From positions 160,001 to 224,000 of the forward strand of contig JAZDKB010000015.1 of assembly GCA_043803405.1 (NCBI GenBank): a DNA stretch of 64,000 nucleotides, given 5' to 3'. Shown piece by piece: positions 5,318 through 59,915 of this stretch. The translations under genes and the position numbers were made by a program. Each line of letters begins with the position of its first letter. Position 1 is the stretch's first letter. The notes under the pieces are model-generated. The model had not been told where the DNA came from. It did not search any database and was given only the letters and a program-made list of their open reading frames with translations. This DNA comes from Spirochaetota bacterium. Lineage in GTDB: Bacteria > Spirochaetota > UBA4802 > JAFGDQ01.

Positions 5318-5516
5318 GGCAGCAACCGAGTCAGCCTGAGACTCTGATATACTTAGCCTGAAATTCTTACAGACTTAGCCTGAGGCAGCATCCGAGTGAT
5401 CATGATCCCAGCACCCGAGTGATCACGGAGGTAGCATCTCTACCTCACGGTCATCGTATCTCTATGACCGTGAGACAGCGACCGGATGACCGTGTATAAG
5501 CATCAGAACCAGCCTG
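5318..5516. repeat. Degenerate ~22-bp tandem repeat, about 9 units
   Basis: agcctga ends recur at 5339/5361/5383; ccgagtgatca occurs twice; atgaccgtg ends at 5472/5494. Confidence 0.75.
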
Positions 5517-10155: not shown

Positions 10156-10272
10156 TAAATGAGCTAATAGAATAATATCTATGGAGCAGGCGACAGGAAG
10201 TCGCCGGAACTGCGTAAAACAGGATGTTTTTTACGAAGTTCCGAAATAGATATTATTCTATTAGCTCATTTA
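10156..10272 (+). repeat. MITE-like element: perfect 27-bp inverted repeats enclosing two GGA-loop hairpins
   Basis: taaatgagctaatagaataatatctat (10156-10182) and its reverse complement (10246-10272); interior ggcgac-aggaa-gtcgcc and ggaact..aaaac-aggat-gtttt..agttcc. Confidence 0.85.
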
Positions 10273-55745: not shown

Positions 55746-58700
55746 CTAATTCATCTTCCTTATCTCTTCCAATACCTGCTCCAGTCTTTTCCCGGAGATC
55801 TTTATTCCAGACTTTATCTCGGGTGCGAAAACGGAAATCTTGTATTCTTCTATAAGCCAGAAGAATGTCCTGAGAGCTTTCTTTTTTTCATTTGAGGTTG
55901 TCTTTGTAAGGATATTGTATTCATGATCCAGAGCGTCTTTAAATAATAATATTTCCTTTTCTTTCTGGATATCCTTTTGAAGATTAGCGCATCCGCGCTC
56001 CGCTCTGATCGCCAAGGCCTTGATGTATTTTCCGAGACTAGCGAGTTCGTTATCATCATAAACAAGCAGAAAATCGCGCGGAACAAGAATGTTCAGTTCG
56101 TCTTTAATTTTATTCAGAAAAACGAGGTTCGGTTTAATGGCTTTATTTTGCAATTTTAAAATGCCAAGTTTATCTGTTGCTGTTGTATAATTCTCAAGTA
56201 CATCGATCAGTAAAAGACGGAGATGGACTCCGTGTTCCCGTAAGGATTCCCGCATCATTTTAATATTATTAATAAAGTCCTGCTTTGATCTTATATCCTT
56301 ATAAAAATTTTTACTCATCATCCGCTTGTGATATTGTTCCCGGATCGATGAAAGCCCTCCGAAAAGCATGACAGCACTTTTTAATTCATCCGGAACATCG
56401 AGTTCATTTTTAATTATGTTCAGCTGGCCGGATAATTCTTTTGCCGTTAGTTCCGCGACAGCTTCCTTGTGAGAACCGGCTGCTGTTTCCATGTCCATGA
56501 AAATCCGCAGGCTTAGCTTCCCGTTCTCTTTTCTCAGCCCGGGATAAAAAACAAACTGTAACCCATTTTCATTTTTTGTTTTTATTTCTTCCGGCAGATC
56601 GCCGAAATCCCATTCGCGGATATCTTCTTTTTCCCATTTGTTTTTTATTTCATTAAAGGCGCGTGCTTTATATTTTTCGGTCAGCTCCCTGATAATATTT
56701 CCAGCGTCTTTGCCGGATGTTATCTCAATGCCGTTTTTATCTCTTATGGATAGTTTTAATCTCAGATGATCCGGTAATTTCTCCGGAGGCCATTCCTGAT
56801 TTGGTATCTCAATATTATATTTTTCATAAATAAATTTTTGAAGCGACGCGATCATAGGATTGCCTTTCGGCATTTCCCTAATAATCTTTTCAACTGAGTC
56901 TGCCGCCGGTATAAAATACCTCCTGTACTGCTTTGGCAGGTTCTTTATCAGTTCGGTAATTTTTTCTCTGTATAGTCCGGGGATCGCTGATTCAATTAAA
57001 TTAATATTTATAGACTGTAATACTGAAACAGGGATGATAAGTGTTATGCCGTCATCCTCGCTTCCCGGATTAAACTTATATAACAAATCCAGCGTAATGT
57101 TATTTATGGATATCGTTTCAGGATATTCCTTTAACTTATTATAATCCGGCAAAGAAGAAAGCATGTCCTCATCATTCATGCATAAAAAATCATCATTCCT
57201 GTTCTTTTTTATAAGCGAATCAAGAGTGCCGATATTATATGCATCATGTATGTGATCAGCATAAAACATATACAGATCATCCCTGCTTATAAGTATCTTT
57301 TTGCGTATCCTTTTTTCAATCCGCATAAAGTTTTTTATAAGCTCTACGTTATGCTGCAGGAACTGAAACTCACGGCCAAGCTGAAAGAGTTCTGCTGTTT
57401 TTCCTGCGTATGCCGTGCCGTCAAGCCCGATCTCGGTAAACATATCCTCTATAAGCGCATCGCGTATAAAGACTTTGCATGCTTCCTCAGGATTCTTCCT
57501 GCCGTATAGAACCCTTCTGTTTCTGATAATTTCAAGGCCGTATAACGTAACTTGTTCAGAGGCATATACATCGCCCTTTTCCCTGTCCCAGTACGGGTCT
57601 CTGTACGAATATTCGCACAGATCTCCTGCAAGCTCCTCCAGCCAGTCCGGCTTTATATTCGCTGCAGTTCTCGCGAATAAAAGCGAAGTCTTTACTAATT
57701 CCGCGCACACTATCCAGTCTTTCGCCCTGCCGAACAGTCCGGAACCCGGAAATATCACCACTTCCCTCTGCTTTGATGCAATGAACAGGTTGTTTGTTTT
57801 TTTATTTGCAATGTTTGATAAAAAACCTGTCAGTATGGATTTATGTATTGCATTGTACAGCAGGTCATACTCCTTAATAAATCTGTGCTTTTTCTTAACC
57901 GCTTTTTTCAATGTAAGACCATTCTCTTCGAGCGTACCCGAAAGCTGCGCGTGGATTTCCCGTATATCTTTCATCCTGTTGTATGATATAAAATTTTCCC
58001 TGCAGAATTTCCTTATCTTATTCTGGCTCGCATTGTCATTATACAGATCAGTAAATTTATTCCATATATTCAAAAGAGTAATAAAGTCCGAAGAACGGTC
58101 TGTAAAAGCGGCATGTTTTTTATCCGCTTCGTTTTCTTTACCTGGTGGCCTTTCCCTCGGATCCTGAACCGAAAGCATGGAAGCAATGGCAAGCACTTCT
58201 GACATGCATTTACGTTCGCCTGCTTCAATAAGCATTCTGGATAATCTCGGATCAACTGGGAGAGCTGCCATTATCCTGCCCCTGTCAGTAAGAGAAAAAC
58301 TATTATCTTCCTTTCGGATAGCACCAAGTTCAATCAGGGTATTATATCCGTCAGTAATCGCCTGCTGCTTAGGTTTATCAATGAAGGGGAATAGCGATAT
58401 ATCGCCAAGCCGCAGTGCTGTCATTTTCAATATGACTTCCGCGAGGTTTGTCCTGAATATTTCAGGCTTTGTGAACCGGTCACGGCCTTCATAATCCTCT
58501 TTAGCATACAGCCTTATGCACACGCCCTCCCTTACCCTTCCGCATCTTCCCATTCTCTGGTCCGCGCTGCTTCCGGAAATTGCTTTTATTGGCATGGATA
58601 CGATTCCGCTGGTAGGCGAATATTCGGACATCCTTGCGAGCCCGGTATCTATAACATAACTTATATTCGGTATTGTTAGCGATGTCTCTGCAATGTTCGT

Positions 58701-59915
58701 GGATACAATTATCTTTCTTTTTGATATGGGGCTGAATATCTGTTTCTGCTGGCCGGCAGGCAGTCTTGAATAAAGAGGAAAAACCGCGAAATTATATTTA
58801 TTCTTTTTTTGAAGCAGATCACATGTCTCGCGTATGTCCAGCTCCGTCGGCATAAATATGAGTATATCTCCGCCCGACGGGCATGGATGCCCTAGTGCAG
58901 GATGCGGACAGGATGTCCTCTTGTATCCTGCAGACGGGCAGGATGCCCTAGTGTCGAGTACGGTCACGGATGACTGTTTGTGTTCGACCGACGGGCAGGA
59001 TGCCCTAGTGTCGGGCACGGTCACGGATGACCGTTTGTGCTCGAAAGACATATCTTCTCTTAATAAAGATAATGCCACGTCGGCTGCCTGTTCAATATAA
59101 TCTGCCGGAATATTTTCTGCATCTTCAGCAGCATCGGTATACCGGACTTCAACTGGATACATTTTTCCAGATACTTCAATAACAGGAGCATTGTTGAACG
59201 CCTTTGAGAACTTGTCCGTATCAATTGTCGCGGATGTTACAATGAGTTTAAGGTCCCTCCGCCTGGCAAGGAGCCTTTTCAATATTCCCAGTATAAAATC
59301 AATATTGATGCTTCTCTCATGCGCCTCGTCTACGATGATGGTATCATAAGCATTCAGGTACGGATCGCCTGCTGTCTCTGCGAGAAGGATGCCGTCGGTC
59401 ATTATCTTAATGAATGAATTCTCCCCGGTCTTTTCATCAAAGCGAATTTTGTATCCGACTGAACTTCCGACTTCCTCTCCGAGTTCTTCCGCGATCCTGT
59501 TCGCAATGCTTATCGCGGCTATTCTTCTCGGCTGGGTGCAGCCTATAATGCCGTTTATGCCTCTTCCTGCAGCAAGACAGAACTTGGGCAGCTGCGTCGT
59601 CTTGCCAGATCCGGTCTCGCCGGATATAATTACAATATTATTAGTCCTGATAGCTTCTATTATTTCATCTTTTTTCGCGGTTATAGGAAGTTCCGGAATA
59701 TAAGAGAATGCCGGGATGTTTTTTTTACGCCATTCTTTTTTCTGAATAGAAAAACTTATCTTTCTCTTGAGCCTAAGGAGCTTATTTTTATCTTCAGTTC
59801 CGGATTTATTTTTTCTGCTTTTATGAAGCAGACGCTTTAATTCTTTTCTAAAGCCGTACCTGTCCGGGCTCATCACTTGCGGAAGCAGCAATTCAAGTTG
59901 TTTATATGGATCCAT
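55746..59915 (-). CDS. hrpA: ATP-dependent DEAH-box RNA helicase HrpA, carrying a 57-aa repeat insertion
   Basis: GETGSGKTTQ, TQPRRIAA, DEAHER, SAT, STNIAETSLT, QRMGRCGR, HA2, OB and C-terminal DUF3418-like WLIEEYKISVFA. Confidence 0.96.
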   Translation of the reverse strand: MDPYKQLELLLPQVMSPDRYGFRKELKRLLHKSRKNKSGTEDKNKLLRLKRKISFSIQKKEWRKKNIPAFSYIPELPITAKKDEIIEAIRTNNIVIISGETGSGKTTQLPKFCLAAGRGINGIIGCTQPRRIAAISIANRIAEELGEEVGSSVGYKIRFDEKTGENSFIKIMTDGILLAETAGDPYLNAYDTIIVDEAHERSINIDFILGILKRLLARRRDLKLIVTSATIDTDKFSKAFNNAPVIEVSGKMYPVEVRYTDAAEDAENIPADYIEQAADVALSLLREDMSFEHKRSSVTVPDTRASCPSVEHKQSSVTVLDTRASCPSAGYKRTSCPHPALGHPCPSGGDILIFMPTELDIRETCDLLQKKNKYNFAVFPLYSRLPAGQQKQIFSPISKRKIIVSTNIAETSLTIPNISYVIDTGLARMSEYSPTSGIVSMPIKAISGSSADQRMGRCGRVREGVCIRLYAKEDYEGRDRFTKPEIFRTNLAEVILKMTALRLGDISLFPFIDKPKQQAITDGYNTLIELGAIRKEDNSFSLTDRGRIMAALPVDPRLSRMLIEAGERKCMSEVLAIASMLSVQDPRERPPGKENEADKKHAAFTDRSSDFITLLNIWNKFTDLYNDNASQNKIRKFCRENFISYNRMKDIREIHAQLSGTLEENGLTLKKAVKKKHRFIKEYDLLYNAIHKSILTGFLSNIANKKTNNLFIASKQREVVIFPGSGLFGRAKDWIVCAELVKTSLLFARTAANIKPDWLEELAGDLCEYSYRDPYWDREKGDVYASEQVTLYGLEIIRNRRVLYGRKNPEEACKVFIRDALIEDMFTEIGLDGTAYAGKTAELFQLGREFQFLQHNVELIKNFMRIEKRIRKKILISRDDLYMFYADHIHDAYNIGTLDSLIKKNRNDDFLCMNDEDMLSSLPDYNKLKEYPETISINNITLDLLYKFNPGSEDDGITLIIPVSVLQSININLIESAIPGLYREKITELIKNLPKQYRRYFIPAADSVEKIIREMPKGNPMIASLQKFIYEKYNIEIPNQEWPPEKLPDHLRLKLSIRDKNGIEITSGKDAGNIIRELTEKYKARAFNEIKNKWEKEDIREWDFGDLPEEIKTKNENGLQFVFYPGLRKENGKLSLRIFMDMETAAGSHKEAVAELTAKELSGQLNIIKNELDVPDELKSAVMLFGGLSSIREQYHKRMMSKNFYKDIRSKQDFINNIKMMRESLREHGVHLRLLLIDVLENYTTATDKLGILKLQNKAIKPNLVFLNKIKDELNILVPRDFLLVYDDNELASLGKYIKALAIRAERGCANLQKDIQKEKEILLFKDALDHEYNILTKTTSNEKKKALRTFFWLIEEYKISVFAPEIKSGIKISGKRLEQVLEEIRKMN
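58876..59046 (+). repeat. Three tandem 57-bp twin-hairpin units inserted in frame in hrpA
   Basis: Units start gacgggca at 58876, 58933 and 58990; they encode x3 19-aa repeats ending ...CPS on the minus strand. Confidence 0.92.

Follow-up and report, generated by a model that had tools for sequence, protein, structure and literature searches.

Within the window analysed here, a stretch of 64,000 nucleotides (nt) that corresponds to positions 160001-224000 of contig C15 in a spirochaetal assembly of 3.98 Mb and 39% G+C, the gene hrpA for a DEAH-box RNA helicase carries three tandem, structured units of 57 nt that are translated as part of the protein. The genome of the window is called G000 and other genomes G001, G002 and so forth, while C denotes contigs, L fetched loci and P fetched proteins. 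Among relatives bearing a name, the best matches of this hrpA come from metagenome-assembled genomes of Spirochaetes and Leptospirales. The features at the locus are the following, in window coordinates:

55746..59915, minus strand: hrpA, an intact open reading frame (ORF) of 1389 codons for a DEAH-box RNA helicase of 1389 amino acids, uninterrupted across the insert and aligned to E. coli HrpA (6ZWX).
58875..58931, plus strand: unit 1, 57 nt, GCAG-stem subtype (79.5 bits with covariance model R1, whose seed includes this unit).
58932..58988, plus strand: unit 2, 57 nt, GTCG-stem subtype; AGAC replaces CGAC at its start, a change that is synonymous in hrpA.
58989..59045, plus strand: unit 3, 57 nt, GTCG-stem subtype, with the outermost pair broken (G-A), then host AGAC.
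59046..59049, plus strand: host tetranucleotide AGAC at the insertion point, an hrpA codon boundary that is used in four homologues.

Tandem Repeats Finder reports 3.0 copies of period 57 with 80% matches at 58874-59044, so that the length of the unit is exact and the unit sequences differ. Read on the plus strand, a unit consists of a tetranucleotide, a 3-bp stem around the loop CA(N)GGATG, the tetranucleotide TAGT, and then a 9-bp stem and a 3-bp stem leading to a second CA(N)GGATG loop, followed by the closing 3-bp stem, a 4-nt bulge and the closing 9-bp stem; in unit 1 this order is CGAC, short GGA hairpin, TAGT linker and long GGA hairpin with the 4-nt bulge on its 3' side. An earlier note on this DNA, made from the letters alone, had described an exact 57-bp triple repeat with A(N)GGA in all six loops, and the period, the copy number and the loops (every one CA(T/C)GGATG or CAGGATG) are as it said, its phase being one base late. 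The same note held that all mismatches are G-U on the plus strand; the modular two-hairpin fold does contain five G-U pairs on that strand, but also a G-A mismatch at 59010/59045, the outermost pair of unit 3, which had been omitted. As to its further claim that the fold favours the plus strand, antisense to hrpA, single units do fold better there as RNA, by 2.2, 3.3 and 4.5 kcal/mol, but unit 1 as DNA slightly prefers the minus strand and the shuffle z-scores of the whole array are nearly equal (-4.95 on plus, -5.14 on minus). The strand preference is real but modest. The minimum-energy fold of the whole array (-88.3) pairs across units, and the modular fold stands at -69.6.

In the protein, the alignment with E. 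coli HrpA (6ZWX) falls into two stretches, residues 13-284 and 347-649, with its break at query residues 284/347 and chain residues 285/289, the insert standing in place of chain residues about 286-288. The units add 57 residues to the loop between the helix ending near residue 285 and the GDILIF strand, the first strand of the RecA2 domain. An AlphaFold2 model of HrpA residues 1-650 from 13 sequences, with a mean predicted local distance difference test (pLDDT) score of 50, is poor overall; it draws the insert as coil with scores of 23-34 between helix and strand and is too weak for use. An 88-codon ORF on the plus strand (58834-59100) crosses all three units opposite hrpA, since the unit lacks stop codons in one frame of the plus strand as well; nothing marks this ORF as a gene.

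The units belong to a dispersed family. Related copies are found over the whole G000 assembly by BLAST and by hairpin scans, and a scan for twin hairpins with a GGA core returns 58 rows, some of them overlapping, where 11 control cores return 0-1 row apiece; a twelfth control core, TCC, returns 11 rows, since it picks up these GGA elements as their reverse complement. A covariance model seeded with 20 aligned units from G000, G001 and G002 has 25 matches in G000 at E ≤ 0.01 and 28 at E ≤ 1, and finds matches in 36 of the 61 genomes of the order, G000 included (the 20 seed copies from G000-G002 match by construction). Over these 20 units, 97.3% of the cells are paired and 15 of the 17 pairs have changed on both sides; none of 500 shuffles, a control that disregards the relatedness of the copies, equals this value, and slid partners pair in 34-40%. 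The covariation, together with folds of single units, gives two abutting hairpins and no stem around both. Units of this dispersed, strongly covarying family are thus made of exactly two abutting hairpins, and the additional genomic copies and covariation that the earlier note had expected are both present; the fourth unit that it counted in the window exists as well, but as a divergent sibling:

10187..10245, plus strand: an intergenic GGA twin hairpin that belongs to subfamily C (E 0.024) and forms the middle of a longer inverted repeat.

Sizes were taken from a parsed set of 76 contexts in G000 and the fetched loci (71 distinct, four rows belonging to another subfamily), in which the unit measures 57 nt in 48 cases, 58 in 18 and 56 in 7. 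There are two routes to 57 nt, either two 7-nt loops with a 5-nt bulge or loops of 8 and 7 nt with a 4-nt bulge. Because the parser requires the loop motif, loop conservation is not measurable from this set. The first base of the unit pairs with the third base of the linker in 63 of 66 distinct units (C-G in 51, T-A in 12, largely one split between subfamilies), and the ends of the element are therefore the feet of its two hairpins. A BLAST search of plasmids gave no match to the element, an exact metagenome scan for the unit-1 subtype gave 0 matches, and viral contigs gave one. A 60-nt family unit, apparently in tandem, lies at the terminase-portal junction of a viral contig (L230:3001-3025). 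G000 also possesses about 20 intergenic GGA twin hairpins of a subfamily B (for example at C34:30072, C3:114696 and C19:376599), each of which occupies the middle of a long inverted repeat, AT-rich and near-perfect, with arms that vary by site.

The flanks and locations of the copies reveal how the element behaves. Its left tetranucleotide is CGAC in 41 and TGAC in 12 of the 76 contexts, and on the right 41 different tetranucleotides occur, CGAC in 12. Since left and right differ in most contexts and are equal in 13/76 only, there is no general target duplication, and target-site duplication as a rule is ruled out. In an array resembling toxin-antitoxin cassettes, 2-10 kb past the window, one attC-like repeat (a reading based on flanking inverted boxes) is empty and two hold a unit after GTAG: in the empty copy GTAG abuts the downstream flank, and in the filled copies the unit with its own terminal GTCG stands in between. 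Nesting goes both ways: a 58-nt sibling (TGAC...TAAT) lies inside units at C15:42843 and C9:160983, and this sibling in turn contains units in reverse orientation; copies in other genomes often lie within other hairpin repeats and in tandem. Genes are entered too, one copy adding 19 codons in frame to a RAYT-like gene that is frameshifted upstream, and a 56-nt copy being located where an RHS gene breaks into two overlapping ORFs. These data establish that the element is mobile, carrying its own 5' tetranucleotide (CGAC or TGAC), making no general target duplication, and entering hairpin repeats, genes, and places within or beside itself.

Some of these surroundings deserve a brief description. 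The cassette array (L001:5900-11850, equal to G000 C15:227900-233850, beyond the window) has long conserved repeats between small cassettes, some of the repeats attC-like; the cassettes encode HicA/HicB-like proteins, ParE with an addiction antitoxin, a nucleotidyltransferase with HepT, and a SEC-C protein, and they lie far from the IntI-like integrase gene discussed below. A second cluster of the same sort is found at C19:70900-72400. The RAYT-like gene (L005:1012-1728, on C18 of G000) has GTAG-footed palindromes on either side, a frameshift near its start and the unit inside, and a decayed GGA element with a weak match to the Rfam family RF01690 lies about 400 nt upstream of it. The RHS-repeat gene (L092:659-2426, on C10 of G000) carries, at the split between its ORFs, a second GGA hairpin element, inverted, besides the 56-nt unit.

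The site in hrpA itself varies among relatives. Of 80 hrpA loci fetched, the 64 that could be parsed show 28-46 residues at the loop, compared with 89 in the window; the pattern missed the other 16, one of them being L017 from G002, a genome of the same genus. In L017 unit 1 sits at the same codon boundary with the 58-nt sibling nested inside it, and because one base was lost the reading frame is kept, with 38 additional residues. The site is empty in G001 and in two genomes of the same family. Among 13 close HrpA homologues, four carry units at the shared codon boundary (one, nested, or three, and of two subtypes) and nine have none: P0003 is encoded by G002, P0005 contains a single unit, of the unit-1 (GCAG-stem) subtype, which is thus present in hrpA of G002 and of P0005 as well as in the window, and P0002 has one unit of the other subtype. 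In a tree built without the loop, the window protein nests among four empty ones (support 96/98), P0003 groups with P0005 in a clade (100/100), and P0002 stands apart. Monophyly of the carriers is rejected by the approximately unbiased test (p-AU 7.1e-5), as is that of the unit-1 carriers (8.6e-5), in a quick LG+G4 analysis with groups defined after the first tree had been viewed. The carriers being non-monophyletic, either at least three gains have occurred, or a single gain together with one replacement and no fewer than two scar-free losses. The proposal of the earlier note that a mobile structured repeat adds new peptide to the helicase, and is absent or variable in copy number in close relatives, is therefore upheld by the dispersed copies, the strong covariation and the empty or differently filled orthologues. 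A metagenome scan for hrpA relatives yielded 80 distant loci (not parsed singly) with match spans of 357-399 nt, none long enough for a unit. The HrpA protein P0011 has an unrelated local duplication of 14 residues in the loop that lies immediately upstream of the point of insertion.

How did hrpA come to hold such an array? The explanation that best covers the whole, and which we consider probable, is that a gene-less mobile element formed by a pair of hairpins has been stacked in a tolerant loop of HrpA. The insert consists of three head-to-tail copies of a small non-autonomous DNA element, two abutting hairpins of mostly 57 nt, and the loop before the first RecA2 strand has been filled, or emptied, several times within the genus; units 2 and 3 were probably added at the foot of unit 1. 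Because 57 nt correspond to 19 codons and one frame per strand is open, hits in this surface loop would leave HrpA intact and survive. The peptide in HrpA would then be a tolerated passenger, and the GGA loops may be retained for the element's own benefit, most likely recognition by a protein, rather than for regulation of hrpA.

Movement may proceed as folded single-stranded DNA, as in transposition of the IS200/IS605 or the repetitive extragenic palindrome (REP) type, with an enzyme supplied in trans that would recognise the hairpins, cut the element and join it. That this enzyme is a nuclease of the HUH type acting in trans is a tentative proposal, to which we give nearly as much credence as doubt. 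In IS608, transposition is of the peel-and-paste kind: excision is precise, and the element inserts 3' of a tetranucleotide (PMC5027513). The likeness of our element to IS200/IS605 members such as IS608 lies in hairpin ends, a carried terminal tetranucleotide, duplication-free insertion by a tetranucleotide and precise excision (PMC5027513), and the empty and filled attC-like copies behave as expected of non-autonomous members of that family, with no target duplication and their own terminal tetranucleotide. The anatomy of the element (folded ends, a carried terminal tetranucleotide, no duplication and apparently precise loss) fits single-strand hairpin transposition. It differs from IS200/IS605 in having no tnpA, in its size of only 57 nt, in its loose target tetranucleotide and in the lack of co-occurrence with Y1 transposases. 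It also differs from REP/RAYT systems, having no linked RAYT: the sole RAYT-like gene found in G000 is the one with GTAG-type palindromes, a frameshift and a unit inside.

Several observations weigh against the explanation just given. No mobilising enzyme emerged from scans for Y1_Tnp and DUF559 or from Pfam scans of neighbouring ORFs (reverse transcriptase, IS110 and IS91 were not searched). Genes for Y1_Tnp do not track the element, being present in 29 of 36 positive and 22 of 25 negative genomes (Fisher p 0.50; like the other enzyme counts below, from draft genomes of which kin are not independent), and none was found in G002, with 27 copies and 93% completeness, or in G026, a single contig of 98% completeness with 13 copies. 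The target tetranucleotide is loose (CGAC on the right in only 12/76), unlike that of IS608, insertion at hairpin feet reaches only p 0.06 upstream and 0.56 downstream over 37 sites, and no replication-strand bias is visible by local GC skew (25 vs 33, in a fragmented assembly). Moreover, G000 and G002 agree in 54 of 56 nt of unit 1; the identity of their hrpA genes is 75%, and 116/265 (44%) at fourfold sites. A single occurrence of this subtype was found in G000, and a single exact one in G002. Without recent transfer or selection, it is hard to explain how a rare subtype could have inserted independently at the same site.

The alternative that survives best concerns the enzyme only and leaves the mobility of the element untouched: it could move by another route, be it an RNA copy with reverse transcriptase, folded single strands handled by an integron integrase, or a small nuclease, for example DUF559. 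We regard this as possible, though doubtful. On its side are the copies in attC-like repeats amid toxin-antitoxin cassettes, the gene at C9:269625-270626, whose product we take from its sequence to be an IntI-like integrase, and the G-U bias, which would suit an RNA stage; the units, however, have no GTT crossover core. At five loci (G001:C87, G015:C70, G015:C71, L140 and L143) DUF559 genes lie next to copies, with a weak correlation of copy numbers (Spearman 0.33) and presence in 25 of 36 element-positive as against 12 of 25 negative genomes (Fisher p 0.11). Yet 11 of the 36 positive genomes have no DUF559 at E ≤ 1e-15, including G034 with 24 copies and 96% completeness, and the adjacency would be explained if the element merely targets hairpins that flank those genes. 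A Pfam scan of 114 ORFs near copies returned two DUF559, one GIY-YIG and one DDE, with no other common mobility gene; Y1_Tnp was found in 0/114 neighbouring ORFs from other loci, and in G019 an IS200-type gene is situated about 250 nt away from one copy. A 21-nt tandem array stands right after a short IS200-type tnpA ORF in G000 (L004:1876-2142, on C7).

A second alternative, which we consider unlikely, is that unit 1 came into hrpA a single time, early in the genus, was conserved at the nucleotide level for a useful fold or peptide, and was then precisely lost in several lineages and replaced in one. The near-identity of unit 1 in G000 and G002, set against their flanking coding identity, speaks for it (binomial 2e-5), as do the unusual TCTT bulge common to both units, the failure to find a second copy of the subtype in G000, and the flanking codons, which follow the vertical lineage; for this last reason there is no co-converted tract, and co-conversion of the hrpA flanks is ruled out. 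But the tree would demand at least two scar-free losses and one replacement, unit 1 of G002 is interrupted by a nested element, and the peptides differ between carriers. Furthermore, G001 and G002 have near-identical intergenic copies too (L113, L114), whence identity across species is a trait of the family, and recent exchange of element types between species is our preferred reading of the similarity of unit 1, with conservation by selection as the less favoured one.

The earlier note had also proposed that the array may act as an antisense RNA sequestering CsrA through its six GGA loops, which now appears very improbable. In its favour, the loops fit the consensus RUACARGGAUGU obtained by SELEX and the CsrB-type repeats (PMC7652899), G-U pairs exceed A-C on the GGA strand (22 vs 10, p 0.05), the csrA gene sought in G000 is present, and CsrA-binding RNA has been proposed for two comparable motifs, TwoAYGGAY and Bacillaceae-1 (PMC4333381; preprint 10.64898/2026.09.22.753630). 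The repeated CAGGA(N)G hairpin loops, with GGA in the loop, do recall CsrB, CsrC, RsmY and RsmZ; unlike these, our element is dispersed in both orientations, and its orientation to genes is balanced (15 sense vs 12 antisense, p 0.70, for loci hand-collapsed from the GGA scan). Promoter-like sites on the plus strand are at chance level in a consensus scan (2, both downstream of the array, vs 2.2 expected). In G000 csrA directly follows fliW, and FliW-type antagonism of CsrA is protein-based and anti-correlated with the system that activates small RNAs (PMC7652899). Nor does csrA track the element, being present in 34 of 36 positive and 24 of 25 negative genomes (Fisher test, not significant), and the number of units at the hrpA site ranges from 0 to 3. 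Incidental binding of CsrA to transcribed copies is plausible; a function as antisense CsrA sponge at hrpA is unsupported. Lastly, an assembly artefact is extremely improbable: no reads span the repeat, and contigs of run X1 cover three short parts of hrpA outside it and those of X2 none, but the units differ mutually (80% matches) while keeping pairing and reading frame, and independent assemblies hold units at the same codon.

Returning to the mobile hairpin pair, its closest likenesses are found among motifs that derive from one source, TwoAYGGAY and Bacillaceae-1 both originating in PMC2864571. In an Rfam scan the hrpA units match no family at E ≤ 5. The reverse complement of Bacillaceae-1 (RF01690) shows, as in the hrpA units, first a short and then a long, interrupted hairpin, both with GGA loops, in multiple copies; the hrpA units differ by a one-sided bulge of 4 nt instead of an internal loop and by their CGAC/TAGT foot, and they are absent from the 12 RF01690 matches at E ≤ 1 in G000, thus falling below the gathering cut-off. 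Two sibling copies in G000 do pass it (36.7 bits at C9:161019-161084, the cut-off being 35), and the element nested in hrpA of G002 scores 34.0 bits. The resemblance to TwoAYGGAY (RF01731) consists of two hairpins with A(Y)GGAY loops, a loop form that the hrpA units share, variable copy number and suspected mobility. Again the hrpA units are below the gathering cut-off, and sibling subfamily B passes it at C3:114662-114786 (52.9 vs 43 bits). TwoAYGGAY has a common basal stem and the hrpA family none, the latter being 57 nt long, self-nesting and gene-entering. For TwoAYGGAY, the 2026 preprint (10.64898/2026.09.22.753630) infers a spread like that of mobile elements solely from its doublets and copy number, and it calls the connection of mobility with regulation unresolved. 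GGAM-1, considered as a related motif, was dropped because it is the guanidine-IV riboswitch.

A bolder reading is that TwoAYGGAY, Bacillaceae-1 and the 57-nt family are all members of a single class of gene-less mobile elements, inserted and excised without scars by an enzyme outside the usual partners, which would recognise the invariant GGA loops (CsrA or an RNA stage possibly playing a part); we think it rather improbable, if somewhat less so than a single early entry into hrpA. Were it true, the length of 19 codons, held by compensating changes in loops and bulge, would permit entry into and exit from essential genes.

Insertion of short palindromes into translated genes has precedents. 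Di Nocera et al. (2013) reported intragenic REPs in enzymes of nucleic acids, including two in-frame GTAG REPs in HrpA of Opitutus terrae (Oter_0009; PMC3733652), and hence in-frame repeats in HrpA have been known since 2013. Intragenic REPs and Rickettsia palindromic elements are, like our units, short palindromes translated within genes, often those for nucleic-acid enzymes. In contrast with the GTAG/CGTC REPs, the units start with CGAC or TGAC and have two hairpins, each with an invariant GGA loop, rather than a GTAG/CGTC tag before a single stem of 8-13 bp. No description of the 57-nt family was found in a literature search whose reach excluded most subscription journals. What is new is the family itself and the proof, at the level of single loci, of precise gain and loss of a GGA hairpin pair. 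Filled, empty, nested and tandem alleles at one codon boundary of a housekeeping gene, combined with an empty/filled pair in one genome, define the ends of the element and provide clean evidence of precise coming and going for a class of motifs usually taken as regulatory RNA. They are also ready substrates for the hunt for the enzyme and for tests of CsrA binding. Elsewhere in the window, positions 5333-5436 contain two adjoining degenerate tandem repeats of 22-23 nt, followed by short palindromes.

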